A stretch of 64,000 nucleotides of DNA from Candidatus Spyradenecus sp. (GCA_045535075.1 JAZSKX010000005.1:1-64000), one strand, 5' to 3'. Counted from the stretch's first letter, positions 1 to 64,000 are shown. Translations and numbers: made by a program. The notes: a model not told the origin generated them from the letters alone.

Positions 1-450
1 GATCGAAAGCGTGCTCAAAAGGAACGTTACGATCGAGAACTGGAAAAACCAAAATGCCGCGTTCACGCGTTCCGGCGGGATAACCACCTTATTTTCCAAG
101 AACCAAAGCCCTATCGTTTCCGAAAGCAAAAGCAGGATAACCACCAACCCGAAGTAGATAAGTTGCGTAAGATTAAAGGTTTGTTTGAGCCGCTCGGTGT
201 TTTTTTGCCCGAGCTCAAAGTTGAAGAAACGGGAACACGATGCCGACATTGTTCCCGAAAGGAACGCGAACATCGTCACCACCCCGCCAATGACTGTCAC
301 CAAGCCGTAATCATCTGCGCCGAGAGCCTGAAGCAAAACACGCGTCGCGAAAATCCCCACAAAGGTCGTGAACGCCATCTTCACGTAGAGCATCAGCGTA
401 TTCTTGGCAATACGCTTGTTGTTCTCGGAAACTGTCGCTGCCTTCGGCAT
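1..450 (-). CDS. Wzx-like polysaccharide flippase (MATE/MOP superfamily), 5' part; runs off window start
   Basis: Manual translation from ATG at 450: MPKAATVSENNKRIAKNTLMLYVKMAFTTFVGIFATRVLLQALGADDYGL...RFFNFELG...ETIGLWFL...FQFSI, open to position 1; typical N-terminus of O-antigen/capsule flippases. Not in the ORF track. Confidence 0.85.
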   Translation of the reverse strand, partial: MPKAATVSENNKRIAKNTLMLYVKMAFTTFVGIFATRVLLQALGADDYGLVTVIGGVVTMFAFLSGTMSASCSRFFNFELGQKNTERLKQTFNLTQLIYFGLVVILLLLSETIGLWFLENKVVIPPERVNAAFWFFQFSIVTFLLSTLSI

Positions 451-460
451 GAAAGGAGAG

Positions 461-488
461 AGATTAGAGATTAAAGATTAGAAATTAG
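461..488. repeat. Degenerate heptamer tandem repeat (AGATTAG AGATTAA AGATTAG AAATTAG)
   Basis: Four 7-nt units read directly, between the regulator stop codon and the flippase start. Confidence 0.7.
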
Positions 489-1015
489 CGGACGACTCCA
501 TTGGTGTTTAAAAGCCCGTCGAGGAGCGGGAGGGCTTCGGCAAAGCGGGATTTCCAGAGTTGGAGTTCGGCGATGCGGGCGCGCGCAAACGCGGCATCGG
601 CGGCGGGAACGGCAGAACTTTTCCCGGCGGATTCTTCGGCTTGCGCGAGGCGGATGTCCGCTTTTTCCAGCGCGGGAACGAGGATTTCCTTCAAAAAGCC
701 TTGAACAAATTTCTTCAAATCCGTTTCCGCCGTGAAATAATCGCGGCGTTCCCCGATTTTGAGGCAAACCCGCGCCGCGCCCAACCGACGCAAAAACTGA
801 ATTGCTTCCACAACGGCCCCACGGGAAAGTTGCAATTTCGTTTGGAGTTCCGGCACGGAAAGCGGCTCGCGGGAACAATAAAGCGCACCATAAACCAAGG
901 CGACGGACTTACGAAAGCCGAACATCGCCGCCGCCCGCACAAACACATCGAGCACCGCCAATTCCCAAGCAGGAACGTTTTCGGCATCCGACAAAACTGC
1001 GCTTTCCGATTTCAT
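485..1015 (-). CDS. GbsR/MarR-family winged-helix transcriptional regulator
   Basis: FGFRKSVALVYGALYCSREPLSVPELQTKLQLSRGAV...GERRDYFTAETD matches the GbsR-type pattern. Confidence 0.8.
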   Translation of the reverse strand: MKSESAVLSDAENVPAWELAVLDVFVRAAAMFGFRKSVALVYGALYCSREPLSVPELQTKLQLSRGAVVEAIQFLRRLGAARVCLKIGERRDYFTAETDLKKFVQGFLKEILVPALEKADIRLAQAEESAGKSSAVPAADAAFARARIAELQLWKSRFAEALPLLDGLLNTNGVVR

Positions 1016-1254
1016 AAAGTTTTCGGAAGATTAAACTTTTATTTTCCAAATCTGTCAATTTTTAATGACACTTTTGAATGTTTGTAGTTTTTATTGCTTT
1101 TGAGAATTTGATTTAGGCGGCAGTTCAGGAAAGAAATCGACGTCTTTTTATTGAATAAAGCAAAGCGGAAATGCGGGCGGCGAAGATTTTAAAATTGCGT
1201 TCCCGTGAGGGAAAGCGTTGAATTGCCGAACATTTTTCAACGAAAGACAAAACT

Positions 1255-2285: not shown

Positions 2286-2323
2286 AAAGCGTTCCCGTGA
2301 GAAATTTGCGGGAACGCTTTTTT
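2284..2323 (+). terminator. Intrinsic terminator of fba formed by an inverted motif pair
   Basis: AAAAAGCGTTCCCGTGA-GAAAT-TTGCGGGAACGCTTTTTT; mismatches are G-U wobbles on the + strand. Confidence 0.9.
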
Positions 2324-5999: not shown

Positions 6000-6650
6000 G
6001 TGCCCCGAAAACACCGTTGCCTTCGATTTCTCGTTCCCGTGCTCGCAATTCTCATATTGCTTGCGGGAACGATTTTTGCCTGCAACAGCCTTGTTGCACA
6101 AAGTCGGGAATTCGTTTTTGAAAACCCGGAAGACATTCCCGTGATGCCGACGGCACTCGTCCTCGGAACCGCCCCGACGACACGCGACGGCGCAACCAAC
6201 ATTTATTTCGCCGCACGTATCGCCGCGACCAAAGCACTTTTTGACGCGGGAAAAATCGAGCGCATCCTCGTCTCCGGCGACAATCGTTCGCACGATTACA
6301 ACGAGCCGCAGGCAATGAAAGACGCCCTTGTCGCTCGCGGCGTTCCCGCAGAAAAAATCTACTGCGACTATGCAGGATTGCGCACGCTGGATTCCGTCGT
6401 CCGTGCAAAAGAAATTTTCGGACAGGAAAAAGTGGTTGTCGTTTCCCAAGCGTTTCACTGCGAACGTGCCGTATTTCTTGCGCGTTCCCGCGGCATCGAG
6501 GCTGTCGGATTCGTCGCCGCCAACAATCCGCCGCTTTTCTACAAAATCAAACTTTGGATGCGGGAACGCCTCGCACGCGTCGTCGCTGTTTCCGACATCA
6601 TTTTTATGCGTTCGCCCAAACATCTCGGCGATCCCGTATCCATAAACTAA
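6000..6650 (+). CDS. SanA/YdcF (DUF218) family protein
   Basis: ILVSGDN...YNEP, DYAGLRTLDSVVRAKEIFG, SQAFHCERA, RERLARV. Confidence 0.9.
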   Translation: MPRKHRCLRFLVPVLAILILLAGTIFACNSLVAQSREFVFENPEDIPVMPTALVLGTAPTTRDGATNIYFAARIAATKALFDAGKIERILVSGDNRSHDYNEPQAMKDALVARGVPAEKIYCDYAGLRTLDSVVRAKEIFGQEKVVVVSQAFHCERAVFLARSRGIEAVGFVAANNPPLFYKIKLWMRERLARVVAVSDIIFMRSPKHLGDPVSIN

Positions 6651-9802: not shown

Positions 9803-10786
9803 CTACCGTCCCGCTTCCTGCGGGAACAGAAAGTCGGCAAAAATCATTCGATGGTCGCTTGCATAAACAAGTTTGCCGCCCGGAAGCGTCTTTCTTGCAA
9901 ACGCCTCATCGGCAATGCGCTCGCTATTCGGAAGTTTAAATTTCTCCGCTTCCCGTGAAATAAAGAAGTGATCAAACACGCGTTTTCCGTTCATTTTCAG
10001 ATAGCGATAAGTCCATGTTTCTCCCGACGAATCGCGCAAATTCAAACGCCTCATTCCGCAGTTTTTCGTAATCCTACGAACCGGCTCACTCTCCGGAAAA
10101 TCATTAAAATCGCCAAGCAAAATGCAGTATTCGCCGCCCGAGCGATCCAGTTCTTTCCCGACATAATCCGCCTCGGCGAGGCGCTCGGCGGCGCATTCCG
10201 GATCTTCGGCGCTTCGCGAAAGCTTACTTTTCAGATGAACCGTAAAAATTCTCAACGGTTTCGTTCCCGCCGGAATCTGCACGCCGAGCAATCCGCGCGA
10301 CATTATTTCCTCTTCAGGAAAACGGAAAACCGTTTCGAACGGAAGTCGCGAAATAATTCCGATTCGACGGTGTGTATCGCGTCCGTTCAAGCAAACGCGA
10401 TGCGGGAACGCCAATCCGGTTTCCCGCGCCAAATCACCCGCAAGTTCATCCAAATGAGCTTCGTCACCGACTTCCTGAAGCGCTACGACATCGGGGCGAA
10501 TCACATCGAAAAGTTTCCACATTGCCGCGCGCTCGGCTCGCGGTTTCGCCCAACGCCGCTTAAATCTTCCGTCCGCAGTATAGCGATTTGTACTTAAATA
10601 ATTTTTACAATTCATTGAAGCAATGCGTAGCGTTCCCGTAGGTTTTTCGGGAATTTTTCCGATATCAACAATCTCGGGAAGCGGCGAAAAATCAGGCTCC
10701 GCGAAGCGGACGGAAAGTAAACAAAAAAATATTGCGCTCGCCGTGAAGGCAAACGCAATAAAAACGTTTTTTGACTGCAAGCGCAT
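9803..10786 (-). CDS. Endonuclease/exonuclease/phosphatase (EEP) family protein, N-terminal membrane anchor
   Basis: ASMN, DVVALQEV, VHLKS, LGDFND, FDHFF, ASDH. Confidence 0.9.
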   Translation of the reverse strand: MRLQSKNVFIAFAFTASAIFFCLLSVRFAEPDFSPLPEIVDIGKIPEKPTGTLRIASMNCKNYLSTNRYTADGRFKRRWAKPRAERAAMWKLFDVIRPDVVALQEVGDEAHLDELAGDLARETGLAFPHRVCLNGRDTHRRIGIISRLPFETVFRFPEEEIMSRGLLGVQIPAGTKPLRIFTVHLKSKLSRSAEDPECAAERLAEADYVGKELDRSGGEYCILLGDFNDFPESEPVRRITKNCGMRRLNLRDSSGETWTYRYLKMNGKRVFDHFFISREAEKFKLPNSERIADEAFARKTLPGGKLVYASDHRMIFADFLFPQEAGR

Positions 10787-13403: not shown

Positions 13404-14549
13404 TTAGCGCGTGAACTTGCAAACGCCGTCAACGAAGGTTTTCGTGACGAGGTAATCGTCGCCGAGCAGGACGAAGTCCGCCGCATAGCCCGGAGCGATT
13501 TTTCCGACATCGTAAAGCCCGAGCGATTGCGCCTGATTCCATGCCGTCGCCTTGACGATTTCGCTGAGCGGCAAGCCCGTGATTTCGCGAATATTGCGAA
13601 TACCGAGCGAGTAATTGAGCGTCGATCCCGCGAGATTTCCGGACATAAGACGCGCTTCGCCGTTTTTGACCATAATCGGCAAACCGCCGAGTTGCGAAGG
13701 TCCGTCCGGCAAACCGGAGCAAGCGAGCGAGTCCGTGATCATCATGATGCGTTCCGGCGTCATAACTTTGAACGCGGTTGCAAGCATGTCCGGGCAAAGG
13801 TGAACCTTGTCGCAAATCATTTCCGCCTTGATCGTGGAATCGAGGAAGCCGGAACCTACCAAGCCGATTTCGCGGTGGTGGAGCGGCGACATCTGATTGC
13901 AGAAGTGCGTAAGGTGCGCCAATCCGGCAGCCTTTGCCGCCTTAAACTGCGCGTAAGTCGCGGCACTGTGCCCGGCGGAGCAACGCACGCCGAGAGCGGT
14001 CGCCTTCGCGATAAAATCGAGCGCGCCGTCGAGTTCCGGAGCCATCGTGATGACGAGAACGGGAGCGATTTTGTTCAGTTTTTCGACGATTTCGTAGTCC
14101 GGATTCTTCAAAAAGTCCGGATTCTGAGCGCCGCACATTTTCGGGTTCACGAACGGACCTTCGAGGTGCACACCGGGAACTTTGACCGAACGCGGAGCCT
14201 TGCGGTATTCCGCAACGGCGTTCATGACTTTTTCAAGCGTATCGTAGCCGAGCGTGAGCGTTGTCGGAAGCCAGCTCGTTACACCTTCCTTTACTTTGCA
14301 GTCCACGATTTTGTGGAGTGCTTCGACCGTGCCGTCGCAAGTATCCGCGCCGCCGGCGCCGTGCGAGTGAATATCGATAAAGCCCGGCATGAGCATTTGC
14401 CCGCCGGCATCGATCACTTCGTCCGCAGCGGGAACGGGAACGCCCGCGCCGAGAACCTGCGTGAATTTTCCGTCTTCGACGAGAACGGAACCGCCGGCGA
14501 TATCGACGCCCGGCGAGATGATGTGTGCATTTTTGATTAACGTTTTCAT
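13404..14549 (-). CDS. nagA: N-acetylglucosamine-6-phosphate deacetylase
   Basis: PGFIDIHSHG, HLEGPF, APE, GHS, THFCNQM, LAGS. Confidence 0.95.
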   Translation of the reverse strand: MKTLIKNAHIISPGVDIAGGSVLVEDGKFTQVLGAGVPVPAADEVIDAGGQMLMPGFIDIHSHGAGGADTCDGTVEALHKIVDCKVKEGVTSWLPTTLTLGYDTLEKVMNAVAEYRKAPRSVKVPGVHLEGPFVNPKMCGAQNPDFLKNPDYEIVEKLNKIAPVLVITMAPELDGALDFIAKATALGVRCSAGHSAATYAQFKAAKAAGLAHLTHFCNQMSPLHHREIGLVGSGFLDSTIKAEMICDKVHLCPDMLATAFKVMTPERIMMITDSLACSGLPDGPSQLGGLPIMVKNGEARLMSGNLAGSTLNYSLGIRNIREITGLPLSEIVKATAWNQAQSLGLYDVGKIAPGYAADFVLLGDDYLVTKTFVDGVCKFTR

Positions 14550-17465: not shown

Positions 17466-17502
17466 AAAAGCGTTCCCGCGAAAACAAAAATCACGGGAAC
17501 GC
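17466..17502 (-). terminator. Terminator after hom formed by an inverted motif pair
   Basis: Minus strand GCGTTCCCGTGA...TCGCGGGAACGC-TTTT; the mismatch is G-U only on the minus strand. Confidence 0.8.
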
Positions 17503-19737: not shown

Positions 19738-20655
19738 ATGAAAAAAGAACTTCCGCTCGCATTGACTTGCGGCGACCCGTCCGGCATCGGACCCGAAATC
19801 ATCGCCCGGCATTTACAAAGCCACCCGCAGGACGCGTCGAAAATCGTTCCCGTCGGGCCGCAACGCTGGCTCGACACGCTCCCGTGCCCGGGAATTGCCA
19901 TCGGCGACAAAGATTTTTCGGCTGTTCCCGGAAAGCCGAATTCCGAAGGGCAACACATCGCGCTCGAAGCGATGGAGCGCGCGGCGGCGGGAACGCTTGC
20001 CGGAGAATTTTCGGGAGTCGTTACCGCACCGATCAACAAAGCCGGCTTGCAAAGTATCGGCTACCGCTTTCCCGGACAAACGGAGTTCTTTGCGGCTCGC
20101 TGGGGCGGCGATCCCGTCATGGCGTTCGTCGGAAAGAAAATGCGCGTCGTGCTTGCGACTTGGCACATTCCCTTTCGCGACGTTCCCGCAGCTCTTACAC
20201 AGAAAGCGATAGGAAATGCATTGTACGCGGCAGAGTTCCTCGGGAGAAAATTTACCGCAAACGCGTTCCCGCGCATCGGAGTCTGCGGACTTAATCCGCA
20301 CGCGGGGGAATCAGGAATTCTCGGCTCGGAGGAACGCGACCGGCTCAATCCAATGCTCAGCGAATTTCGCCGGATTTTTCCCGGACTCTCCGACTGCGTT
20401 CCCGCGGACACGATTTTCTGCCGGCATCTGCGCGGAGAATTCGACATCGTTGTCGGACTTTATCACGATCAGGCACTCGCGCCGCTGAAAACGGTAGAAT
20501 TCGACACGGCTGTCAACGTTTCCTTGGGCTTGAAATACATTCGCACCTCGCCGGACCACGGCACGGCTTACGACATTGCAGGCAAAGGCATTGCGAGCGC
20601 CGACTCCATCGGCAACGCGATTCGCGTCGCAATCGAACTTTGCGCAACACATTAA
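19738..20655 (+). CDS. pdxA: 4-hydroxythreonine-4-phosphate dehydrogenase
   Basis: GDPSGIGPE, TAPINK, LNPHAGE, YHDQ, RTSPDHGTA; start set at MKKELP. Confidence 0.93.
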   Translation: MKKELPLALTCGDPSGIGPEIIARHLQSHPQDASKIVPVGPQRWLDTLPCPGIAIGDKDFSAVPGKPNSEGQHIALEAMERAAAGTLAGEFSGVVTAPINKAGLQSIGYRFPGQTEFFAARWGGDPVMAFVGKKMRVVLATWHIPFRDVPAALTQKAIGNALYAAEFLGRKFTANAFPRIGVCGLNPHAGESGILGSEERDRLNPMLSEFRRIFPGLSDCVPADTIFCRHLRGEFDIVVGLYHDQALAPLKTVEFDTAVNVSLGLKYIRTSPDHGTAYDIAGKGIASADSIGNAIRVAIELCATH

Positions 20656-20688
20656 AATAGTTTTACAAACTCCGAGAAAAATGAGAAG

Positions 20689-21645
20689 ATGGCAGTTCGA
20701 TTTTTTCAAATGAGCTGCGAATCACCACGAAAGTTTTACGACCGGGCGTTTAAAATGACTCCGGAATATCGTGCGTCGTTGCCGGATATGCAAAACACGA
20801 ATGCGACCGGCATTGAAGGCGGTGCCGTGCCGATTCTCCAGGTCGGAATGTCGAATTTCCGCCTCCCGCTTAAATTTGCCCGCCCCGGGCTTACTCCGAT
20901 TGAGCTTGAGACGAACATCACGGGAACGGTTTCACTGGACGGTCGCCATAAAGGCATCAACATGTCGCGCATCGTCCGTATTTTCTACACATTTAAGGAC
21001 GAAATTTTTACGCCGGCGACACTCGAAAAAATCCTGCGCAAATACTTGGAGGAAATCGGTTCTTCCCGCGCCCAAATTCGCTTGGAATTTAACTATCCGA
21101 TTTTACAAAAGAGTCTGCGAAGTGAACTCGAAGGCTATCAATATTACGGAAGCGCGTTCGAGGGGATCCTTGAAAACGACCGTTTTCGCGCCTTTATAAA
21201 CTTTGACTTCGTTTATTCTTCGGCGTGCCCCTGCTCGGCGGAACTTTCGGAACACGCACGCGTCTCCCGCAATGTTCTCGGCATCCCGCACTCGCAACGC
21301 TCCAAGGCTCGTATTTTTGCGGAGCTCGCGGGAACGCCGGAAATCTACATCGAAGACTTTAAGGAGCACTGCCTGAACGCGCTTCACACGGAAACGCAAG
21401 TCATGGTCAAGCGAGAAGACGAACAGGCGTTTGCCGAACTTAACGGCGCTTATTACAAGTTTGTAGAAGATGCTGCGCGCCTGCTTTACGCGGAATTCAA
21501 CAAAGACTCCCGTATTTACGATTTTCAAATTGCCTGCGCCCACCTCGAATCGCTTCATTCGCACGACGCTGTCGCCGTGCTCAATAAAGGCGTTCCCGGC
21601 GGCATTGCACACGGTTTTACCGACTTTAAAAGTCTGGTTTGCTAA
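20689..21645 (+). CDS. folE2: GTP cyclohydrolase I type IB
   Basis: [47 protein letters not shown]; start may be 20710. Confidence 0.93.
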
Positions 21646-21652
21646 TTTCAGC

Positions 21653-21727
21653 GTCCCCGTAGTTCAACGGATAGAACACCTGCCTTCTAAGCAGGTTATC
21701 TGAGTTCGATTCTCAGCGGGGGCGCCA
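21653..21727 (+). tRNA. tRNA-Arg(TCT)
   Basis: Acceptor GTCCCCG/CGGGGGC, anticodon arm CCTGC-CTTCTAA-GCAGG, T-arm GTTCGATTC, encoded CCA. Confidence 0.95.
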
Positions 21728-21776
21728 TTTTGTTTTCCGCGATTTGGCATTTTTTATGCAGTAAATTTTACTTATT

Positions 21777-22589
21777 ATGACACAGAAGAACGAAAACGAC
21801 TCTAAAACTTCGACTTCCAAGAAAGTACGTTTCCCGACTCCGCCCTGGAAAAAGAACAAGGCAAAAGAATCCGCCCCGGAAAACGATACCGTTCCCGCAT
21901 CCCCGGAAGAAATTAATGAACAGGACAATCCGCAGGAATGCGACGAGCCGACGCTCGCGGACTCTCCGGAGGAAATTGAAACGGTAGAAGCAACTGAAGC
22001 GGAATCCGGCGTTCCCGCAGAGTCTGATGCGAAAGAAGAACCCAAGCAGGAAACGAAAAAAGATATCCGTTTTGACAATATCGCCGACGCCTTTCTCAAA
22101 GTTCAGGCAACGCTGAAAAAAACGGAAGAAGAACTTGAGAAAACAAAAGCGGATCTCGAAAAAGCCACGGACGGATACACGCGTGCGGTCGCTGATTTCG
22201 ACAATTACCGCCGCCGCACAAACGAAGAGCGCCCGAAAAATATGCTCTATGCCAAGGGCGACATCGCCAAGGATCTCTTTCCGGTTTTGGACAATTTCAA
22301 GCTCGGTCTCGAAGCCGCCGAAAAACAGCATCCCGAAGCCAAAGCAATTCTCGAAGGGTTCTCCATGATTGCCGCTCAATTGCGCAATGCGCTTTCTCAA
22401 CACGGCATCTCCGAAATCAATCCGCTCGGCGAGCCCTTCAATCCGCAGGAACACGAGTCTCTTTCGATGATGCCTTCAGCGGACGTTCCCGCAGATCACG
22501 TGCTCTTCGTCCAACGAACGGGCTACAAAATCGGCGAGCGTCTTTTGCGCCCGGCATCCGTAGTCATTTCGGCGGGAAAGCAGGACTGA
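21777..22589 (+). CDS. grpE: Nucleotide exchange factor GrpE with long N-terminal extension
   Basis: ADFDNYRRR, PVLDNF, FNPQEHE, GYKIGERLLRPASV. Confidence 0.93.
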   Translation: MTQKNENDSKTSTSKKVRFPTPPWKKNKAKESAPENDTVPASPEEINEQDNPQECDEPTLADSPEEIETVEATEAESGVPAESDAKEEPKQETKKDIRFDNIADAFLKVQATLKKTEEELEKTKADLEKATDGYTRAVADFDNYRRRTNEERPKNMLYAKGDIAKDLFPVLDNFKLGLEAAEKQHPEAKAILEGFSMIAAQLRNALSQHGISEINPLGEPFNPQEHESLSMMPSADVPADHVLFVQRTGYKIGERLLRPASVVISAGKQD

Positions 22590-22682
22590 GAAAATTTAGA
22601 GCTTACAGCCGGAAGAAAAGGTGTTCGTTGAATATCCGAATTCTTTTAAGCGTAAAGCATTAATATTTTAAACTTTCAAAAA

Positions 22683-23813
22683 ATGGCTGACGACTATTAC
22701 AAACTGCTCGGAGTCGAAAAATCCGCAAGCGCCGAAGAAATCAAAAAAGCTTACCGTAAACAGGCAATGAAATATCACCCCGACCGCAATCAGGGTGATA
22801 AGAAAGCCGAGGAAATGTTTAAAAAAGTTTCCAACGCTTACGAAGTTCTTTCCGATCCTCAGAAACGAGCCACCTACGACCAATACGGCGCTGCCGCGTT
22901 TGAAAACGGCGGCATGGGCGGAATGGGCGGCATGGGCGGATTCAGAGACCCGAGCGACCTATTCCGCGAATTCTTCGGCGGCGGAGGGGGAGGAATTTTC
23001 GAAAGCTTTTTCGGCGGCGGAAATCGTGCCGAAGAAGACACGCGCGGGAACGACTTGCGCTTCGACATCGAAATTTCGCTCGAAGAAGCCGCTGCGGGAA
23101 CGGAAAAAACCATCAAATACAAACGCCACACGCAATGCTCCGCCTGCCACGGAAGCGGCGCCGAACCCGGAAGCTCCCGAAAAACCTGCCCGACCTGCAA
23201 GGGACGCGGGCAAGTTGTCCGCCGTGCCGGATTCGTCCAAATGCAACAGCCCTGCCCGACTTGCCAAGGCTCCGGGAAGGTTATCGAAAAACCCTGCAAA
23301 AAATGTAGCGGCTCCGGCGTCGAAATTGAGACGCGCACCATCGTCAAACGAATTCCCGCAGGTGTCGCCACGGGAACGCGCCTACGCTCGTCCGGCGACG
23401 GCGAAGCCGGCTCCAACGGCGGCGCTTACGGCGATCTTTACATTATCATCCATGTTCGCGAGCACGAGCTGTTCGAACGCAACGGCGACGACCTCTACTG
23501 CACGATTCCGATTAAATTTACACTTGCTACGCTCGGCGGAACGCTCGCCGTTCCGACCCTGACCGGGCGTGCCGAACTCAAAGTTCCCGCGGGAACTCAA
23601 AACGGAACGATGTTCCGCCTGCGCGGAATGGGAATGCCGAATCTGCGTAGCGGCTCAAAAGGCGATCAATACGTCCGCCTCGAAATTGATGTTCCGAAAT
23701 CGCTCAATTCCGAGCAAAGGGAAAAACTTCAAGCCTTTGCGGAATCCTGCGGCGACAAGGAAAAACCGATTTCCGAGTCCTGGCTCGAAAAGTTCAAAAA
23801 CTTCTTTAAATAA
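22683..23813 (+). CDS. dnaJ: Chaperone DnaJ
   Basis: J domain with HPD, G/F region, four CxxCxGxG repeats. Confidence 0.98.
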
Positions 23814-23853
23814 AAAAAACGTTCCCGCGATTAATCTCACGGGAACGTTTTTT
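23814..23853. terminator. Bidirectional terminator between dnaJ and the kinase gene, inverted motif pair
   Basis: AAAAAACGTTCCCGCGA-TTAATC-TCACGGGAACGTTTTTT between convergent genes. Confidence 0.9.
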
Positions 23854-23940
23854 ATCTCAAAGAAACGAGAGATCGGGAACGCGGTGATTTCCGGGTCGTC
23901 GGTCTCTCGTCTCCGGTTCTCTTTAACCTTCAGTCCCTTT

Positions 23941-25056
23941 TTACAGCGAAGCGACGAGCGCGTTCATCGCGTCCATCTGTTCTTCAATGCATTCGACGAG
24001 GCGGAACTGCGTGCGGCAACGATCGAGGTTGTGATCCGGACGCGCCGTTTTGAAATACAAGTCGCCGTCGAGATAGTCCGTGAGGAAGCGCATTCCGCAT
24101 TCGAGCGTGAGAAGCTTGCCCGAGAACGGGAGCAATTCGCGTTCCTTGGCGTTGAGGAAATCGCCGGCGGAGCTGATGTAGCCTTTCGCGAGTGCTTCAA
24201 AATATTGGAACTGCATAGCGACTTTGGACAAATCAACTTCGTCTTCCTTGGCGGGCGAAGTCGAAGTACGCACCATGTCGCCGAAGTCGTAAAGCGCGGA
24301 ACCCGGCATCGACGTGTCGAGGTCAATAACGCAAATGCCTTCAAGCGTGTAGTCATCGATGAGCACGTTGTTCAACTTCGTGTCCTGGTGCGCAATGCGT
24401 TCGGGAATTTCGCCCTTCGCCATCGCGTCGAGCACAACGGAACAATCCGCTTCGCGCGCGAGGATAAAGTCGATTTCCTTTTTGACCCCGGCGGCGCGGT
24501 TTTTCACGTCGGCAGCGAGCGATTTTTGGAAAGTTTCAAAGCGTTTGCGCGTGTTGTGGAAATCCGGAATGGTTTCGACAAGGCGTCCGCCCGGAATATC
24601 GACGAGAAGTTTTTGGAAGTTTCCGAAAGCGCGAGCCGCCTGGAACGCTTGCTCCGTTGTTTCGATCACATCGTAGCCGCGGGCGCGTTCGATGAAAATG
24701 TAGCAACGCCAGACATTGCCTTCCGCGTCAACATACCAATCCTTGCCGGCTTTGGTCGGGATGAGCGTGAGCGTGCGGCGGGAGGCGTCGGGCGCGTTAT
24801 TGGCTTTAAGCTTATCAAACGAGTGGCGGCAAATACGCGCGACGTTTTCCATCAATCCTTCCGGATTTTTGAAAATGTAGGAATTAACGCGCTGAATGAT
24901 GTAGCGCACGCGGCAGGCGCCTTGGTCAAACACGGCGCAAAACGTGTCGTTAATGTGTCCGCTTCCGTACGGGAACGCGTCGACGAAGTCGCCGTAAATG
25001 GCGAATTGCGCCGCGATAGCGGGAACGTTGTATTTAGTGTCTTTTGCTGAGGACAT
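23941..25056 (-). CDS. APH-fold sugar kinase, N-acetylhexosamine 1-kinase (NahK)-like
   Basis: GSGHINDTF, ETIPDFHNT, HQDTKLNN, VIDLDT, YDFGD, RFLTDYL.GD.YFK; start set at MSSAKD. Confidence 0.8.
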   Translation of the reverse strand: MSSAKDTKYNVPAIAAQFAIYGDFVDAFPYGSGHINDTFCAVFDQGACRVRYIIQRVNSYIFKNPEGLMENVARICRHSFDKLKANNAPDASRRTLTLIPTKAGKDWYVDAEGNVWRCYIFIERARGYDVIETTEQAFQAARAFGNFQKLLVDIPGGRLVETIPDFHNTRKRFETFQKSLAADVKNRAAGVKKEIDFILAREADCSVVLDAMAKGEIPERIAHQDTKLNNVLIDDYTLEGICVIDLDTSMPGSALYDFGDMVRTSTSPAKEDEVDLSKVAMQFQYFEALAKGYISSAGDFLNAKERELLPFSGKLLTLECGMRFLTDYLDGDLYFKTARPDHNLDRCRTQFRLVECIEEQMDAMNALVASL

Positions 25057-25251
25057 AAGTTTGTGGGTAGGATTAGTTGTTAAAAAAATCGTGGGACAAA
25101 GTTCTTTCATTATCCTGCTCTGCGATGTTTTTCTCAAGATTTATTTCGTTCATTTGACGGGAACGAATTCGGAATCCGAGGTTGACTTGACAAATTAAAA
25201 ATTCTACGTTCTCGCTCAATTTTTTCGGATCTCACCCTCCCTCCCCCCTTT

Positions 25252-27582: not shown

Positions 27583-27606
27583 TCAAAAAGATTAAAGCTT
27601 AAAGAA

Positions 27607-27645
27607 GGCGTTCCCGTAGCTAAAACTGCGGGAACGCTTTTTTTT
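27607..27645 (+). terminator. Terminator after hppA, inverted motif pair
   Basis: GGCGTTCCCGTAG-CTAAAA-CTGCGGGAACGC-TTTTTTTT. Confidence 0.9.
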
Positions 27646-33996: not shown

Positions 33997-34028
33997 GTTC
34001 CCGTGAGTTTTTTCACGGGAACATTTTT
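33997..34028 (+). terminator. Terminator after GH95, inverted motif pair
   Basis: GTTCCCGTGA-GTTTTT-TCACGGGAAC-ATTTTT. Confidence 0.8.
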
Positions 34029-34742: not shown

Positions 34743-34751
34743 CACGCAACA

Positions 34752-35879: not shown

Positions 35880-35887
35880 TAAACAAA

Positions 35888-35915: not shown

Positions 35916-35939
35916 ATATCGTTGCCCTAGCCTGATATA

Positions 35940-38060: not shown

Positions 38061-38201
38061 AGGACTTCTTATCTTGAAAGGAATCACACAAAACAACAAT
38101 AGTCGCAGACTAAAAATCGGATTTCACAAAAGCAAATATATTCTACCTTCACGGTAGTATTAATCACCCGTTCCCGCTCGCCGGGTAATACTTCTCAAAA
38201 C

Positions 38202-38241
38202 AAAAAAAGCGTTCCCGTGATTTACTTTTCACGGGAACGCT
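38202..38241 (-). terminator. Terminator after pnp, inverted motif pair
   Basis: AAAAAAAGCGTTCCCGTGA...TCACGGGAACGCT; U tract on minus strand. Confidence 0.9.
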
Positions 38242-38260
38242 CTTCTAAGTTCTCTCTCGT

Positions 38261-40486
38261 TTAGTCGCGGCGCGGACGGCGCGGGCCGCGGTCATGGCGA
38301 TCGCCGCGACGCGGACGATCTCCGCGCGGTTCTGCCGCTTTCGGTTCGTACGGACGACCTTCCTTTTCGGCGATCGCAGCACGGCGGGAAAGGCGAACGC
38401 GTCCTTTTTCGTCGATGCCGACGCACTTGACGATGATTTCATCGCCAAGTTTGCAAAGGTCTTCGACTTTTTCGAGGCGTTCTTCGGTAAGCTCGGAAAT
38501 GTGAACCAAGCCTTCCTGACCCGGCAGACATTCGACGAAACAACCGAATTCCTTAATCGAGCGGACAATTCCTTTATAGGTTTTTCCGGATTCAATCGTT
38601 GCGGCAACGAGGTTAACTTCGTTGATGGCAAGTTGCATGGATTCTTCGCTCGTCGCAAAAATGTCGACGCGACCGGAATTGTCTTCGTTGATGTCGATTT
38701 GCGCGCCGGAAAGTTCGCAGATGCGGCGAATATTTTTTCCGCCCGGACCGATGAGTGCGCCGATCTTGTCAGACGGAATCATCATCGTATGGATACGCGG
38801 AGCTGTCGGTTTGACGGTTTCGCTCGGAGCCGCCTTCGCTTCCGTAATCATGCCGAGAATCGCATCGCGTGCAACGCGGTTTTGCTTAATCGCTTCCTTC
38901 GCGATTTCAATCGGCAAGCCGTGAATTTTGAGGTCAAGCTGGAAGCCCGTGATACCGGCAGACGTTCCGCAAATTTTGAAGTCCATGTCGCCGAAGTGGT
39001 CTTCAGAACCGATAATATCCGTGAGGACGACGTGTTTGACGATTTTTCCGTTTTCGTCGGGAAGCGTTACCAAGCCGCAGGAAATCCCGGCGACGGGAGC
39101 GCTGATCGGAACACCGGCATCCATGAGCGCGAGCGTGCCGCCGCAAACGGAAGCCATCGACGTCGAACCGTTCGACTCCATGATTTCGGAGGAGAGGCGA
39201 ATTGAGTACGGGAAATCCTCTTCGCTCGGAAGCACGGGAACGAGCGAGCGTTCCGCAAGTGCGCCGTGGCCGATTTCGCGGCGACCGGGCGAGCCGAATT
39301 TGCCGCATTCACCGACGGAGAACGGCGGGAAGTTGTAGTGCAAAATAAAGGTTTTCGACTTCGGACCGCCGGCGAGACCGTCGAGTTCCTGAGCATCTTT
39401 CGAGGTGCCGAGCGTCGCGATGACGAGCGCCTGCGTTTCACCGCGTTGGAAAAGTCCCGTTCCGTGAACGCTCGGAAGCACGTCCGTCTTGCAGGAAATC
39501 GGGCGAAGCTGGTCGAGCGAGCGACCGTCGGCTCGAACGCCTTTGTTCAAAATGCCTTCGCGATAAACTTTTTCCTGAAGTTCTTCAAACGCGATGTTGA
39601 CGTGGCGCGGGTCGATATTTTCTTCTCCGAGAGCCGCGATGACGGCTTCCTTGGCTTCCGCTTTAACCGCGCTGACGGCGTTCCCGCGTTCCTGTTTTCC
39701 CGGAAGATAAACGGCTTTCGCGAGCTTGTCGTCCGTATTCGCGATTTTTTCGCAGATTTCAAAAACTTTCGGATCGCAGATAACGAGCGGAAATTCCTTC
39801 TTCGGCTTGGCGACCTTTGCCGCGAGTTCGCGCTGAGCGGCAATGATTTTCTGAATCGCGTTCTGCGCAAATTCAAGCGCTTCGACGAAACGATCATCCG
39901 GCATTTGGTCGGCAGAGCCTTCGATCATCATCATGTCTTCTTCGTTGCCGACATAAACGAGGTCGAGCGTCGATTCGTCCATTTGCGCGTGAGTCGGATT
40001 GACGACGAATTCACCGTTGACTTCGCCGATGCGCACGCCGGCAATCGGGCCGTTCCACGGAATGTCGGAGCAAAGGAGCGCGGCGGAAGCGCCGTTGATC
40101 ATAAGCACGTCCGGATCGGTTACTTTGTCCGTCGCGAGCAACAGACCGATGACCTGCACTTCGTTCATGAAGCCTTTCGGGAAAAGCGGGCGAAGCGGGC
40201 GGTCCACCTGGCGGGAAGTCAAAATTTCCTTTTCGGACGGGCGACCTTCGCGCTTGAAGTAACCGCCCGGGAAACGTCCTGCTGCGGCAAATTTTTCGCG
40301 ATAATCAACGGTAAGCGGGAAAAAATCCTGGTCCGGGGAGCGCAGTTCGTTTGCCGCAGTTGCGGTAACGAGCACTTCCGTTCCGCCGACCGAAACGGTA
40401 ACGGCGCCGTTGGCTTGGCGGGCAATCGAGCCCGTGCTGATTGTGAGACCGTATTCTTCGATCGTCACGCTGTATTCTTGTTGCAT
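38261..40486 (-). CDS. pnp: Polyribonucleotide nucleotidyltransferase
   Basis: [32 protein letters not shown] and S1 domains; start MQQEYS. Confidence 0.98.
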
Positions 40487-40604
40487 ATTGTTTTGTCTCT
40501 TTCTTGTGTTCCCGCGGGATTGCAGGAACGGGTTGTTTTTATTTTTGTACGAAAATCTTAGGGGAAAACGGAAAATCGCAGAAACGCGAGATACGAAAAA
40601 AAGC

Positions 40605-40644
40605 AAAAGAGCGTTCCCGTCAAAAAGTCGGGAACGCTCTTTTT
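40605..40644 (-). terminator. Terminator/attenuator between rpsO and pnp, inverted motif pair
   Basis: AAAAGAGCGTTCCCG-TCAAAAAGT-CGGGAACGCTCTTTT. Confidence 0.85.
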
Positions 40645-40651
40645 CGTCGCA

Positions 40652-40909
40652 CTATCGGCGAAGCCCGAGCTTCTGGATAATCGCTTCGTAAGCTTCGAGC
40701 TTATTCTTTTTGAGATAGTTGAGAAGCTTGCGGCGACGATTCGTCAGCGCGATCAGACCGTGGCGGCTGTGGAAGTCTTTCTTGTGCGTGCGGAGGTGCT
40801 CGGTAAGGTGAGCGATGCGCGCAGAAAGAAGAGCAATTTGAACTTCGGAAGAACCCGTGTCCTTATCGCTGAGTTTGTAGTTATTGATGATTTCGGATTT
40901 GTTGTACAT
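40652..40909 (-). CDS. rpsO: 30S ribosomal protein S15
   Basis: [35 protein letters not shown]; start MYNKSE. Confidence 0.98.
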
Positions 40910-40928
40910 AGCTTGTTGTTTTGTTTTC

Positions 40929-41016
40929 AGAGCTGAATGGCTTTCCCGAAGGGGAATTCCGCGTCCCGGACCCGAAAGTCTGAAGCGCCGTCTCACGGCA
41001 AAATTGCCGCAACTCC
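40929..41016 (-). promoter_or_regulatory. Candidate structured rpsO leader RNA
   Basis: Three short hairpins enclosed by a GGAGTTG/CAGCTCT closing stem, directly upstream of the S15 start; folded by hand. Confidence 0.4.
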
Positions 41017-41341
41017 GGCTTCCCGAGGCTCACACCCCGAAAAACTTGACGAATTAGGGGGGCAATGATGAACTTTCCTATGCGTTCCCGCAAGGAAAAA
41101 CAGCAGCTCGCAGCACGGTAATTTCAAGCCTAAGCAATATCAATTCTCGTAAAAAACTTTGTCGGATTCACGATTATTTCTTTGAGTTTTCCGCAGCTTC
41201 GTCCGGGATTTTAAACGCCGTTCGGCAAAACGATTTTCGAGTTTAAACTTTCTCTTTAAAAAAAAGGTTTTATAATGGAGCTGTTCCACGGAACAGAATT
41301 CCGAAGAAAATCACTCCATAAACAGAAAGGATTCCCCCACT

Positions 41342-42196
41342 ATGAAAAATATCTTAGTTTGCGTTGACGGATCGAATTACGGGCAAGTCTGCACGAGCTA
41401 CGCGGTTTGGCTGGCAAAAAAGACCGGTGCCAAAATTTCCGCGCTCTACGTTTCGGAGCTTTGGCAATACGAAACTCCGCTTATTGCGGATTTCGGCGGA
41501 GTCATCGGCACGCAACCTTACATGGGGCTAACGGCGCAGTTGCGGGAAGTCGAAGCCGGAAAAGCGAAAATAATCGAAACCTATGTTCGCGGAGAATTTG
41601 AAAAAGCGGGAATTCCCGACCAAGTGGAATTTTTCCACCGCTCCGGCTTGCTTGTCGATTGCATTGATGAGTTTGAAAATCAGCGCGGCGACATCAGCGC
41701 GATTATTCTCGGCAAGCGAGGCGAGCACGCAAATTTCGCCAAAGGGCATCTGGGCTCAAACATGGAGCGCGTCATTCGAGCCAGCAAGTTGCCCTGCTTT
41801 GTCGTTAACCGAAAGTTTATCGAACAGAAAAAGATTGTGCTCGCCTACGACGGAAGCCCGAGTGCAACGCGGGCGCTGGAATACCTTGCAACGCGCAAGG
41901 AGTTTATCGACCAGGAAGTCCATATCGTTACCGTCGCAAAACCGGGCGCCGAGGCCGACGCGACGCGCCTGCTTTTCGAAGCGGAAGCACGTCTGAAAGG
42001 CGGGCCGCTCGTTCCCGTCGCACAGTTGCTTTCGGGCACCCCGGGCGAAGCACTCGAAAAATATGTCCAGGAAAACGACATTACCTGTTTGATTATGGGC
42101 GCCTACGGGCACTCCCGCGTGCGCCAATTTATCATCGGAAGCACGACGACGGAATTCGTCCGCCGCTGCCTCATTCCGGTTATTATGTTCCGCTAA
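41342..42196 (+). CDS. Universal stress protein, tandem Usp domains
   Basis: ILVCVDGS, LGSNMERVIR, LAYDGS, MGAYGHSR...IGSTT. Confidence 0.92.
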   Translation: MKNILVCVDGSNYGQVCTSYAVWLAKKTGAKISALYVSELWQYETPLIADFGGVIGTQPYMGLTAQLREVEAGKAKIIETYVRGEFEKAGIPDQVEFFHRSGLLVDCIDEFENQRGDISAIILGKRGEHANFAKGHLGSNMERVIRASKLPCFVVNRKFIEQKKIVLAYDGSPSATRALEYLATRKEFIDQEVHIVTVAKPGAEADATRLLFEAEARLKGGPLVPVAQLLSGTPGEALEKYVQENDITCLIMGAYGHSRVRQFIIGSTTTEFVRRCLIPVIMFR

Positions 42197-42212: not shown

Positions 42213-42260
42213 AAAAAAAGCGTTCCCGTCGTCAATTTCCGCGGGAACGCTTTTTATTTT
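42213..42260. terminator. Terminator after usp, inverted motif pair (convergent gene gap)
   Basis: AAAAAAAGCGTTCCCGT...GCGGGAACGCTTTTTATTTT. Confidence 0.85.
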
Positions 42261-47150: not shown

Positions 47151-47228
<78 letters not shown>

Positions 47229-47289: not shown

Positions 47290-47320
47290 AAAAAAAGTTC
47301 CCGCAAGGTTTCGCGGGAAC
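47290..47320. repeat. Inverted motif pair in the divergent tRNA-Pro/pyrC spacer
   Basis: AAAAAAAGTTCCCGC-AAGGTTTC-GCGGGAAC. Confidence 0.7.
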
Positions 47321-51586: not shown

Positions 51587-51625
51587 AAAACCGTTCCCGC
51601 GGATTTCTCTGCGGGAACGGTTTTT
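51587..51625 (+). terminator. Terminator after rbr, inverted motif pair
   Basis: AAAACCGTTCCCGCGGA-TTTC-TCTGCGGGAACGGTTTTT. Confidence 0.9.
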
Positions 51626-61363: not shown

Positions 61364-62086
61364 ATGAAAGTCAGCCTCTTTATCCCCTGTTTCGTTGATC
61401 AATATTTTCCCGACGCCGGCATGGCATGCGTCAAAATTCTGGAAAAACTCGGACACGAAGTCCTTTTCCCCGAACGCCAAACCTGTTGCGGGCAACCGCC
61501 GCACAATACGGGATTTTGGAAGGAGGCCCGCGAATCCGCCTTGCGCGCGATTGAGATTTTTGAGAACGCGGAAGTCGTCGTCGGTCCTTCGGGCTCCTGC
61601 ATCGCGATGATGAAAGACGGCTACGGAGATTTGTTCAAAGGAACGGAACACGAAGCACGCGCGAAAGCACTTGCGGCAAAAACCTTTGAATTCACGCAAT
61701 TTCTTGTAAACAAACTCGGCGTAACCGACCTCGGTGCATCGTTCCCGCACAAAGTAACATTCCATGATGGCTGCCACGGCTTGCGCATGCTCAAAGCGAA
61801 AAGCGAGTCGCGCGCGTTGCTGGCAAAAGTCAAAGGGCTCGAACTTATTGAGATGAGCGAAGCGGAATCCTGCTGCGGTTTCGGCGGAACGTTTTCCGTA
61901 AAATTCCCGAAGATTTCGACGGCGATGGTTGAAAAGAAAGCCGCTTCGATTTTGGAAACGGGAGCGGAATACGTCACCTCGCTCGATGCGTCCTGCCTCA
62001 TGAATATCGGCGGGTACGCCGCGCGGGAACGCCTGCCGTTCAAAACCATTCACATCGCGGAAATTCTCGCGTCAAACGAAGCTTAA
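61364..62086 (+). CDS. lutA: Lactate utilization protein A (YkgE/LutA, CCG domains)
   Basis: QTCCGQP, SGSC, FHDGCH, CCGFGGTFSVK, SCLM. Confidence 0.88.
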   Translation: MKVSLFIPCFVDQYFPDAGMACVKILEKLGHEVLFPERQTCCGQPPHNTGFWKEARESALRAIEIFENAEVVVGPSGSCIAMMKDGYGDLFKGTEHEARAKALAAKTFEFTQFLVNKLGVTDLGASFPHKVTFHDGCHGLRMLKAKSESRALLAKVKGLELIEMSEAESCCGFGGTFSVKFPKISTAMVEKKAASILETGAEYVTSLDASCLMNIGGYAARERLPFKTIHIAEILASNEA

Positions 62087-62105
62087 GAACAACTCCCTTT
62101 CTGAC

Positions 62106-63521
62106 ATGAGCACTCCTTCGACACTTTTCAAAGCCGCCGTTGCCGACGCTACGTCCAACGAATCCCGCCGCAACTTCATTTATAAAGCGCTCGGCGGTTA
62201 TTACGTTTCCCGAGACAAGAACAAAGACAATTTCCGCGACTGGCAAAAAGCCCGCAACTGCGCCGCGCAAACCAAATACGAGGCGCTGAATAATCTTGCC
62301 GACAATCTGGAGATTTTTTCGAAAAAAATCGAAGCGCGCGGCGGCAAAGTTTTCTTCGCGGCCTCGCCGAGCGAAGCGCGGGAATACATTTTAAAAGTTG
62401 CCCGCGACAACAATGTCAAAAAAATCATCAAATCGAAGTGCATGACGTCGGAGGAAATTCACCTCAACGACGCGCTCGAATCCGCGGGAACGGAAGTTGT
62501 CGAAAGCGACTTGGGGGAATTCATTCAGCAACTGCGCAAAGAACCGCCGTTTCACTTCGTGTTCCCGTGCATGCACGTCAAACGCGACGAAATCAACCGA
62601 CTCTTTCAGGAAAACATCCAATCGCGCGACACGGATAATCCGGCGGAACTGACGATGATTGCGCGGGAATATCTGCGCCAAAAATACCTCGATGCGGACA
62701 TGGGCATCACGGGAGCAAATTTCATTGTCGCTCAAGACGGCATGATTTCGGTAACGGAAAACGAAGGCAACTCCCGTCTTTCCGCCGCAATGCCGAAAAT
62801 CCACCTTGTTCTTGTCGGCATTGAAAAAGTCGTCCCGCGCCTCGAAGATCTCGCGCTGTTCCTCCCGATGCTCGCAACCGCCGGCGCCGGGCAGCCGCTC
62901 ACCGGCTACAACACGCAATACGCGGGACCGCGCACGGCGGAAAATCCCGACGGACCGGAACAATTTCACGTCGTGCTTTTGGACAACAACCGCACGCAAC
63001 TGCTCGCCGACGCCGAACACCGCGACGCGCTTCACTGCATGCGCTGCGGCGCGTGCCTGAACGTTTGTCCCGTCTTCAAAAACATCGGCGGGCTCAGCTA
63101 CGGAACGACGTATCAGGGACCGATCGGCTCGCTCATCACACCGCATTTGCGCGGCACGAAAAACTGGCAACATCTTTCTTATTCGTCGTCGCTCTGCGGC
63201 GCCTGCACGCAAGCCTGCCCGGTCAAAATCGACATTCACGACCACCTGCTTGAAAACCGCCGCAACGCAACAACGCTCGCGCCGAGTCTGCTTTGGAAAA
63301 CGATTTTCTTCGGGTTTAACTTCATCTTCTCGCGCCCGAAGCTCTACGCGCTGACCTTCAAAATCGCGAAAAAAATCAATCCGCTCACCAAGCTCGCCGA
63401 CAAAGTCCCGGGAACGCTTCTCCACGGATGGACGGGAACGCGTAATCTCCCCGAACCACCGAAAAGCTCTTTCCGGGAACGCTTCGCCGAACACCAAAAA
63501 GAAGACCTGAGCATCCGCTAA
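62106..63521 (+). CDS. lutB: Lactate utilization protein B (YkgF/LutB, Fe-S)
   Basis: ESDLGEFI, GITGANF, NEGN, CMRCGACLNVCPV, SSLCGAC...CPVKI. Confidence 0.9.
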   Translation: MSTPSTLFKAAVADATSNESRRNFIYKALGGYYVSRDKNKDNFRDWQKARNCAAQTKYEALNNLADNLEIFSKKIEARGGKVFFAASPSEAREYILKVARDNNVKKIIKSKCMTSEEIHLNDALESAGTEVVESDLGEFIQQLRKEPPFHFVFPCMHVKRDEINRLFQENIQSRDTDNPAELTMIAREYLRQKYLDADMGITGANFIVAQDGMISVTENEGNSRLSAAMPKIHLVLVGIEKVVPRLEDLALFLPMLATAGAGQPLTGYNTQYAGPRTAENPDGPEQFHVVLLDNNRTQLLADAEHRDALHCMRCGACLNVCPVFKNIGGLSYGTTYQGPIGSLITPHLRGTKNWQHLSYSSSLCGACTQACPVKIDIHDHLLENRRNATTLAPSLLWKTIFFGFNFIFSRPKLYALTFKIAKKINPLTKLADKVPGTLLHGWTGTRNLPEPPKSSFRERFAEHQKEDLSIR

Positions 63522-63543
63522 CCTCCTTCGCAGACAACGCACT

Positions 63544-64000
63544 ATGAACAATCCTTCCAAAGAAAAAATTCTCGCCCGTATCCGCGAAGCCCTGCGCGTT
63601 CCTGCGCCCACGCCCGCGCAAATCCACGGTCGCCACGGTCAAACGCCCGCCGAAGAATACACGCGCGATTTCCGCGATGCAATGCCGCCTGCGGGAACGA
63701 GCGATGCCGAACGCCGTGCGATTTTCGAAGCCAATCTCGCCGCGCTCAAAGGGCAGTTCGTCGCCTGCAAAAACCTTGACGACGCTCGCGAAAAATTTGA
63801 AACGCTCTGCGCCGAACGCGCTTGGACGAAGTTCGCCACGCATCGCGCCCCGCTCTGCGACAACGTCGTTCCCGCAGAGAAATCGCCGATTCTCACCGAT
63901 GACGGCTACGACAAAAACGCGCTCGGTGCCGTCGATGTCGGCATTTCCGAATGCGAATGCCTTGTTGCACAAACCGGAAGCGTCATGTTTTCGACACGTG
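63544..64000 (+). CDS. lutC: Lactate utilization protein C (YkgG/LUD domain), partial at window end
   Basis: Manual translation MNNPSKEKILARIREAL...VGISECECLVAQTGSV, open to the end; follows lutB. Confidence 0.8.
   Translation, partial: MNNPSKEKILARIREALRVPAPTPAQIHGRHGQTPAEEYTRDFRDAMPPAGTSDAERRAIFEANLAALKGQFVACKNLDDAREKFETLCAERAWTKFATHRAPLCDNVVPAEKSPILTDDGYDKNALGAVDVGISECECLVAQTGSVMFSTR

Follow-up and report, generated by a model that had tools for sequence, protein, structure and literature searches.

What maintains a single short DNA word, the heptamer CGGGAAC and its complement GTTCCCG, all along the first 64,000 nt of contig JAZSKX010000005.1 of a Candidatus Spyradenecus genome is the question raised by this locus. 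The window, by which we mean this whole 64-kb stretch (G000:C15:1-64000), belongs to an assembly of 1.95 Mb in 18 contigs (G000 in the following) with 52% GC and a completeness of 99.45%, and its gene content is that of an ordinary housekeeping region (PNPase, SMC, DnaJ, a membrane pyrophosphatase, nagA, pdxA and others). We conclude that a sequence-specific force maintains thousands of copies of the word on the resident chromosome of one gut Opitutales genus, and that base composition, codon usage, protein repeats and mobile elements do not account for its abundance. The force is strong enough to alter the choice of codons and of some amino acids; only certain lineages have it, the cells can do without it, and it has ceased to act on two occasions. 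As to its nature, we tentatively propose, with somewhat less than even confidence, that the word is a DNA uptake sequence of the kind known as DUS (DNA uptake sequence) in Neisseriaceae and as USS (uptake signal sequence) in Pasteurellaceae.

Saturation of the window by this word on both strands had been reported in a sequence-only reading, with hand counts of 31, 38 and 33 copies in the first three 10-kb segments. These counts proved to be exact; the series continues with 40, 37 and 34 copies and with 15 in the last 4 kb, and a copy is present at all ten positions that had been quoted as examples. Altogether the window contains 228 copies, 115 on the plus strand and 113 on the minus strand, in agreement with the absence of strand bias described before, and 160 of them extend to RCGGGAACG, as had been said of most copies. 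The claimed enrichment of 25-30 fold was based on a uniform model and was too high: dinucleotide-preserving shuffles of the window (n = 100) contain 14.2 copies on average (standard deviation 3.8, maximum 21), which leaves a 16-fold enrichment.

At the scale of the whole genome, CGGGAAC, CGGGAACG and GCGGGAACG are the commonest 7-, 8- and 9-mers of G000. With an order-2 Markov null they occur 6528 times versus 589 expected (11-fold), 5159 times versus 268 (19-fold) and 3244 times versus 82 (40-fold), respectively, and one CGGGAACG is found per ~380 bases. The logo of 6527 copies reads y-R-CGGGAACG-c, with G in 62% and A in 24% of copies at position -1 and G in 79% at position +8, and its information content falls to zero past 2-3 nt on each flank of the core. 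The full consensus yRCGGGAACGc is non-palindromic and its flanks are not conserved. Taken together, the 24 one-mismatch variants of CGGGAACG amount to 6437 copies, compared with 5159 perfect ones, and most of them occur near expectation. Over-represented are only CGGGAACA (6.4-fold), CGGGAACT (4.5-fold) and CGGGAGCG (4.1-fold); the tolerated substitutions are A or T at position 8 and G at position 6. Because the core is sharp and non-palindromic and lacks conserved flanks, we regard it as a bare word and not as a repetitive extragenic palindrome (REP), a miniature inverted-repeat transposable element (MITE) or any longer repeat.

Genes in G000 were called with a crude open reading frame (ORF) picker (at least 100 aa; 1505 ORFs, 90.4% coding) that made some wrong-strand calls at two pilin loci, so that the frame and spacer counts given here carry some error. 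Both genes and spacers hold the word, as had been noticed in the window: 4435 copies of CGGGAACG lie within genes and 724 in spacers or at gene edges, with a density of 3.9 per kb in non-coding DNA and 2.5 per kb in genes. All six reading frames are occupied (418, 1444 and 761 copies in sense, 357, 297 and 1158 in antisense orientation), the commonest being xCG-GGA-ACG, which encodes Gly-Thr, and the copies are distributed evenly along gene bodies. When codons were shuffled synonymously within each gene (n = 30), preserving the proteins and the codon usage of each gene, the sense strand kept 315 ± 15 copies and the antisense strand 192 ± 13, in comparison to 2627 and 1814 observed. The 8-9 fold excess of the word therefore persists under the codon-preserving shuffle that had been recommended as a check.

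With the leading strand assigned from local GC skew, the G-rich form of the word is slightly commoner there (54.7% overall, 2601 versus 2150). In spacers the two strands are nearly balanced (348 leading versus 327 lagging, 51.6% leading), and a replichore polarity of the Chi or KOPS kind, for which the sequence-only reading had advised to look, is not found. The share of copies on the sense strand is 63% in leading-strand genes and 55% in lagging-strand genes, and the slight overall bias is due to this sense-strand preference together with the G-richness of the word. Over 20-kb bins, the strand of the copies correlates with GC skew (Spearman 0.63). Gaps between copies have a mean of 295 nt and a coefficient of variation (CV) of 1.09, or 0.95 if close pairs are excluded, and show no periodicity; their quantiles are about exponential at the median and the 90% point, with a longer tail (99.9% point at 3353 nt versus 2040 nt expected). 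Two 20-kb bins, G000:C5:120000-140000 and G000:C8:180000-200000, carry the word nearly on one strand only (9 versus 66 and 11 versus 55 copies); giant genes for repeat proteins, with Gly-Thr written as GGA-ACG, are probably located there. A PATR-repeat protein was noticed at another place.

A part of the copies is arranged in pairs. G000 contains 180 pairs of the form GTTCCCG-N3-18-CGGGAAC. Of these, 122 are intergenic; at least one gene ends upstream of the pair in 118 of the 122, and most pairs are preceded by an A-run and followed by a T-run. The arrangement is one-sided, with 169 pairs in the order GTTCCCG...CGGGAAC versus 31 in the opposite order at 13-22 nt and a mode of 19 nt. Spacers between convergent genes contain 5.3 copies per kb, co-directional spacers ~4 and divergent spacers 2.6. 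To judge by their sequence, the pairs are bidirectional, intrinsic-terminator-like hairpins made of the word. Their loop sequences vary from pair to pair, and the hairpins are therefore not copies of one element; close hairpins take up 360 of the 6528 CGGGAAC copies. The window has a total of twelve inverted pairs of the terminator kind, and the three longest terminator-like stems detected between positions 22001 and 42000 are such pairs (Table 1).

Foreign DNA is poor in the word. The genome mean of G000 is 33 ± 8 copies per 10 kb, and two regions, C16:185-220 kb and C8:20-35 kb, have only 7-11. Both are Mu-like prophages with genes for Mu Gam, a MuB-like AAA ATPase, Mu gp27, terminase and Mu portal, and the depletion in prophages that had been suggested as a check is thus borne out. 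The prophages extend over G000:C16:~183000-221500 and G000:C8:~20000-35000; a Dam-type methylase and an ADP-ribosyltransferase-domain protein are encoded in one of the two, and a C5 methylase in the other. The C16 prophage is missing at the syntenic site of the congener G013. Two small contigs, C18 (3741 nt) and C3 (3143 nt), contain 0 and 3 copies; they gave zero matches with Rfam and are not rRNA, and they may be foreign, mobile or mis-binned DNA.

The PNPase sequence places G000 in the Opitutales of the Verrucomicrobiota, the phylum that had been guessed from the window, and the nearest named public record is a metagenome-assembled genome labelled 'Candidatus Spyradosoma sp.' with 92% identity. 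GCGGGAACG is enriched in all 18 congeners, in which reversed-word controls give 37-87 copies. Fourteen of them contain 3060-5581 copies, G001, G002 and G013 contain 732-760 and G014 contains 340; with G000, 15 of the 19 genus genomes thus reach 3060-5581 copies per 1.6-2.2 Mb. Beyond the genus the enrichment is absent: all 62 genomes of four sister genera within the family lack it, as do all 12 that come from other Opitutales families. The look at related genomes that had been proposed therefore confirmed the word throughout the genus, and no variant motif was seen in the samples. Among two dense and four low-density congeners the GC content ranges from 49% to 58%, and the sampled stretches share the same word. 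CGGGTAC in the sister-genus genome G031 was considered as a dialect and rejected, since nearly all its copies share one frame within a single stretch, which is a giant repeat gene.

The four low-density species are informative about the force itself. In a PNPase tree (705 aa, FastTree, four outgroups, sequences taken from tblastn segments), G001, G002 and G013 form the sister clade of G000 with a support of 0.998, this group is nested among the dense genomes G004, G018, G008 and G009, and G014 stands on a separate branch. From this one gene tree, low density is a derived state that arose twice; the identity ranks of PNPase and secretin are concordant. GCGGGAACG occurs 1.7 times per kb in G000 and 0.36 times per kb in its sister clade. 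We compared G000 with 1.21 Mb (about 58%) of the G013 genome in 640 ortholog pairs with 747 kb aligned, a nucleotide identity of 79.7% and a median protein identity of 84%. In the aligned orthologs, 346 copies of CGGGAACG are shared, 1521 are found in G000 only and 91 in G013 only, which means that 79% of the G013 copies are common with G000. The 91 private copies of G013 are no more than its synonymous shuffle yields (114.5 ± 9.5), and its excess (437 copies observed) is wholly accounted for by shared relics. The G001/G002/G013 and G014 lineages have stopped gaining copies and keep relics only.

Copies of G000 are retained in G013 at a rate of 0.185, compared with 0.206 for random 8-mers, so that there is no preferential retention. 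At the word sites found in G000 only, the encoded peptide differs in 826 of 1521 cases (54%) versus 39-45% at other differing 8-mers, which shows that the force reaches into protein sequence, too. The number of hairpin pairs per Mb falls from 92 in G000 to 40 in G013, a smaller drop than for copies overall, as is expected if terminator stems are kept by their own function. At a 5-kb locus around PNPase, 8 of 9 dense-species pairs retain copies at a higher rate than random 8-mers (e.g. 0.58 versus 0.35 and 0.48 versus 0.16), though this is one locus with a small sample, and the species pairs are not independent.

Among known genome-wide words, uptake sequences offer the closest comparison (for the DUS see also Berry et al. 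2013, PMC3868556). The DUS of Neisseriaceae is read by the minor pilin ComP. Genomes of 2.2-2.4 Mb carry from about 1900 to nearly 6000 DUS according to Frye et al. 2013 (PMC3630211), who also describe inverted DUS pairs at terminators for all DUS dialects. Like the DUS, the word of G000 is short and non-palindromic, occurs in thousands of copies per ~2 Mb on both strands and in genes as well as spacers, forms inverted pairs at terminators and is clade-specific, and genes for a type IV pilus, ComEC and DprA are present in both cases. It is unlike the DUS in its unrelated sequence, in the phylum in which it occurs and in its fixed core of 7-8 nt in comparison to 10-12; moreover, no dialects were seen in the sister genera, ComEA was not found, and in two lineages of the genus the pressure has gone, with no loss of competence genes visible there. 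The USS of Pasteurellaceae has a core of ~9 nt, a weak preference in its flanks and a use in terminator hairpins. The word shares with it the core of ~9 nt with weak flanking preferences, the terminator hairpins and the clade specificity, while the USS, unlike the word with no flank signal past 2 nt, has AT-rich flanking segments and two subtypes. In both cases the receptor is a prediction. For the USS it is the minor pilin PpdA/ComN, a candidate obtained from protein-DNA modelling and co-evolution across dialects (Helsem et al. 2025, PMC12616744). As there is one dialect only in the genus studied here, the co-evolution route to a receptor is closed. In summary of these comparisons, the word is unrelated in sequence to DUS and USS and, by analogy, appears to have the hallmarks of the genome-saturating DUS/USS type.

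A surface DNA receptor, probably one of the pilin-like proteins of a type IV pilus, would prefer word-bearing DNA. Fragments with the word would then enter more often via secretin, ComEC and DprA and recombine into the chromosome, so that mutations that create the word would spread and mutations that destroy it would be replaced, which amounts to molecular drive. Spacer hairpins could hold two inverted copies at no cost, and terminator stems would in this way come to be built of the word. The genes for such a route lie outside the window. G000 encodes a ComEC of 570 aa, a DprA with a winged-helix domain, a cluster running from PilM to a secretin of 984 aa, two PilB-like ATPases, one PilT-like ATPase, PilC, ComM, and a ComF-like protein that scores below the family cut-off. 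There are seven pilin-like genes, four of them in a cluster at G000:C1:259100-262400, where three have the pilin N-terminal motif by Pfam and the fourth gives a weak match. The cluster lies between ruvX and a pseudouridine synthase gene, and recJ follows ~2 kb further on. The genomic hallmarks of DUS and USS that we looked at are mostly present, including terminators and copy number, and biased uptake with recombination is for this reason the best single explanation. The interpretation as self-DNA recognition that had been drawn from the window thus fits most of the genomic data, and competence-type genes, on which it depends, were found elsewhere in the genome, though not ComEA; no gene ties the word to transformation.

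Several findings weigh against an uptake sequence. That the uptake machinery reads the word is something we infer by analogy, no ComEA and no dialects were found, and the tested competence genes are intact in the species that have lost the word. In detail, ComEA was not found in the 99.45%-complete G000 by searches with HHH_3 and TIGR00426, which matched only an 805-aa ORF, putatively Tex-like, and two weak sites. The ComEC of G000 is short, and Pfam detects only its Competence domain. No dialect emerged from a k-mer screen of 26-60 kb samples of seven genomes from the four sister genera, nor from 30-80 kb samples of the four low-density congeners. ComEC is intact in all 19 genus genomes, including the four low-density species, and the same is true of the secretin in 17 of 19 (the G003 match lies in two frames and G005 is cut at a contig end) and of the pilus ATPase cluster in 17 of 19 (G012 and G017 have pieces on short contigs), in both cases including all four low-density species; the ATPase cluster has 97-98% identity in G001, G002 and G013. 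A 141-aa pilin is present in 19 of 19 genomes, with a stop counted inside the match in five dense species, and so is the ComF-like gene. The 1.21 Mb of G013 compared here contain DprA, the four-gene minor-pilin cluster, retained at 80-89% identity, and another two pilin genes. The ComEC proteins of G000 and G013 have 63% identity, compared with the ortholog median of 84%, a difference on which we put no weight. As the low-density species retain these genes, loss of the word is not tied to any visible loss of competence genes. Control searches showed furthermore that the same competence families are common in bacteria without uptake sequences, and the spacing of the word is near exponential and not especially even.

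Instead of directing uptake, the word could mark binding or action sites of a chromosomal protein (nucleoid-associated or engaged in repair or recombination) that are held, in the manner of codon bias, by weak selection at each site; both low-density lineages would then have lost or altered this protein. Such a role would make the word comparable to HIP1 of cyanobacteria, GCGATCGC, and we consider it the main rival, possible but rather unlikely. Both are octamers that occur about once per gene or more, far above expectation and across a whole lineage, with a function that is unsettled, and the density and fold-enrichment of our word resemble those of HIP1, for which PMC5861425 gives a 15- to 300-fold over-representation (see also PMC4390886). 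A chromosomal protein would agree with the dispensability of the word, given that four species live with relics only, with the preferential retention at the PNPase locus in 8 of 9 dense pairs, and with the retention of all tested competence genes in low-density species. HIP1 is a palindrome, reportedly quasi-periodic and linked to two orphan methyltransferases, in contrast to the word, which is asymmetric and neither periodic nor even in its spacing, and for which no conserved methyltransferase was found; the C5 and MmeI-like enzymes are sporadic. Promoter-side spacers show no excess of copies, and copies have no preferred position along genes. About 5000 individually selected sites need a benefit at each site. 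We know of no genome-wide word of this kind for which such a benefit has been shown. Worded without regard to mechanism, the statement that the word is the footprint of a dispensable system other than uptake, which reads an asymmetric 8-mer, rewrites codons and even amino acids, has neither a conserved methyltransferase nor replication polarity and was switched off twice with pilus and competence genes intact, is one that we regard as unlikely. Alternatively, the word could be a self mark that modulates AddAB/RecBCD or a defence nuclease, by which the cell's own DNA would be spared or repaired and word-poor foreign DNA degraded. Known Chi sites are G-rich words of 7-8 nt (that of E. coli is GCTGGTGG), as is the word studied here, and its depletion in prophages, the 54.7% on the leading strand, the correlation with GC skew and a ~1100-aa ORF with a PDDEXK_1 nuclease domain, possibly AddA/B-like, in G000 would fit. 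Chi, which acts through RecBCD/AddAB, and KOPS, which acts through FtsK (a gene with the gamma domain is present in G000), are strongly skewed to the leading strand and enriched only few-fold, in contrast to the unpolarised spacers and the 19-40 fold enrichment found here; the overall bias is explained by sense preference and G-richness, and the PDDEXK_1 ORF is also present in low-density species. Such a self mark is improbable.

Still less probable, in our judgement, is a mutational drive linked to repair or modification of the very-short-patch kind, in which an enzyme would correct mismatches in near-copies towards the word. The sharp core and the CpG at both ends of the word would suit this, as would the GAAC it contains, which is a phosphorothioation site of Dnd systems. 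The neighbours expected from CpG deamination stand at 1.0 (TGGGAACG), 1.5 (CAGGAACG), 2.9 (CGGGAATG) and 6.4 (CGGGAACA) relative to expectation; none is depleted, the opposite of a very-short-patch footprint. No Vsr, no PF01555 enzyme and no conserved methyltransferase were found. For the C5 methylase on C12 a close ortholog is lacking among the congeners, the best match being 54% identical, with an internal stop, in the low-density G014. An MmeI-family type IIG enzyme at G000:C2:15779-18763 (995 aa, all five MmeI domains) belongs to a class that reads asymmetric words, and its occurrence in the genus is sporadic: 8 of 18 congeners give no match and a ninth only a match of 42 residues, six of these nine are among the densest, and the low-density G001 has an 80%-identical copy with one internal stop. 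Neither of the two enzymes was kept as a candidate reader, since their distributions do not follow word density. Three HsdM genes and a Dam-type enzyme are sited in islands or in prophage. A link to methylation or repair, one of the alternatives raised by the sequence-only reading, thus has no support in the tests made, with Dnd and Ssp genes outside the search, while its other alternatives, a nucleoid protein or a HIP1-like word, keep the standing given above. As to an artefact or by-product of codon usage, repeated protein domains, REP or MITE elements or terminator hairpins alone, the dominance of the Gly-Thr frame (1444 copies), the two strongly one-stranded bins, such as a giant repeat gene would give, and the giant repeat gene that mimicked a motif in a sister-genus genome may seem to speak for it. 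These readings are excluded by the 8-9 fold excess over the shuffle that preserves proteins and codon usage, by the occupation of six frames and spacers, the unconserved flanks and the differing loops, by the small share of copies in close hairpins (360 of 6528) and by the presence of the word in 19 separate assemblies.

To our knowledge, sequence-specific uptake has been shown experimentally in two proteobacterial families only, and the reason why such words exist is debated. In a full-text search judged by titles, we found no account of the word, of uptake sequences or of natural transformation in Verrucomicrobiota, and the text matches to the word, among those listed, are apparently unrelated oligonucleotides. 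If the word of G000 does serve uptake, the phenomenon would not be a proteobacterial oddity but would extend to uncultured gut Verrucomicrobiota, and the word could help to make the genus genetically tractable. Irrespective of its function, G000 and its sister clade G001/G002/G013 form a natural on/off contrast, with G014 as a second, independent loss, and a comparison of complete genomes that spans both losses offers a direct way to the gene of the reader, be it a pilin or something new. The word could also help to recognise foreign DNA and wrongly binned contigs in genomes of this genus.

Such a comparison was made with all 1505 ORFs of G000 against the 1.21 Mb of G013. It gave 49 gaps flanked by conserved neighbours, many of which contain essential genes such as those for FtsK, UvrC, PdxJ, proline synthesis and PBP1a, and these gaps are therefore rearrangements into the remaining part of G013 and not losses. 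The clean deletions in G013 comprise prophage, restriction and Hachimoji-type (HamA) genes and unannotated small ORFs; no candidate for a reader gene came out of this comparison of G000 with ~58% of G013. A defence island at G000:C9:~57000-68000, with HamA and a DEAD-box helicase (Hachimoji-type) beside type I HsdR and HsdM, lies inside a 27-kb block that is absent at the syntenic G013 site.

Table 1. Positions of the word and of its paired arrangements in the window
Feature	Position	Strand	Remarks
CGGGAAC field, 228 copies	1..64000	both	3.6 copies per kb, over housekeeping genes and spacers
Inverted pair GTTCCCG-N11-CGGGAAC	2291..2315		A-rich stretch before, T-run after; intrinsic-terminator-like hairpin
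Inverted pair, longer loop of 24 nt	6033..6070		T-run after
Two overlapping direct copies, CGGGAACGGGAAC	14429..14441	+	within a gene
Inverted pair	17472..17500		between two minus-strand genes; A-rich stretch before
Two abutting copies forming the 14-nt palindrome GTTCCCGCGGGAAC	23583..23596		this spacing is found 21 times in the genome
Inverted pair	23821..23846		just past a dnaJ-like gene; A-run and T-run; second-longest terminator-like stem in 22001-42000
Inverted pair	27610..27635		past the pyrophosphatase gene; T-run after
Inverted pair	33997..34022		past an 840-aa ORF; scored terminator-like
Inverted pair	38211..38238		directly downstream of the PNPase gene (-); longest stem in 22001-42000, 18 pairs; counterpart retained in two related public records (L034, L036)
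Inverted pair	40613..40635		upstream of the PNPase gene; likewise retained in L034 and L036
Inverted pair	42222..42248		A-run and T-run on the flanks
Inverted pair	47297..47320		adjoins a tRNA gene, 47154-47228 (-)
Inverted pair	51593..51618		T-run after

Extracellular nucleases accompany competence in some bacteria. In the window, a 327-aa ORF at 9803-10786 on the minus strand gives a weak, partial match to the ExeM/NucH extracellular endonuclease family, whose 46 bits fall far short of the cut-off. Besides the word, a second family of over-represented words, which is AT-rich, was seen in the partial genome of G013, where AGATTAAAG occurs 249 times in 1.2 Mb (41 fold) and words of the TAAGCTCTA type are enriched, too. 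Strings like ttagagcttaaag often stand directly before the terminator hairpins of G000, for example at C1:128700 and C1:192880, and this word family may be a gene-end or promoter signal.

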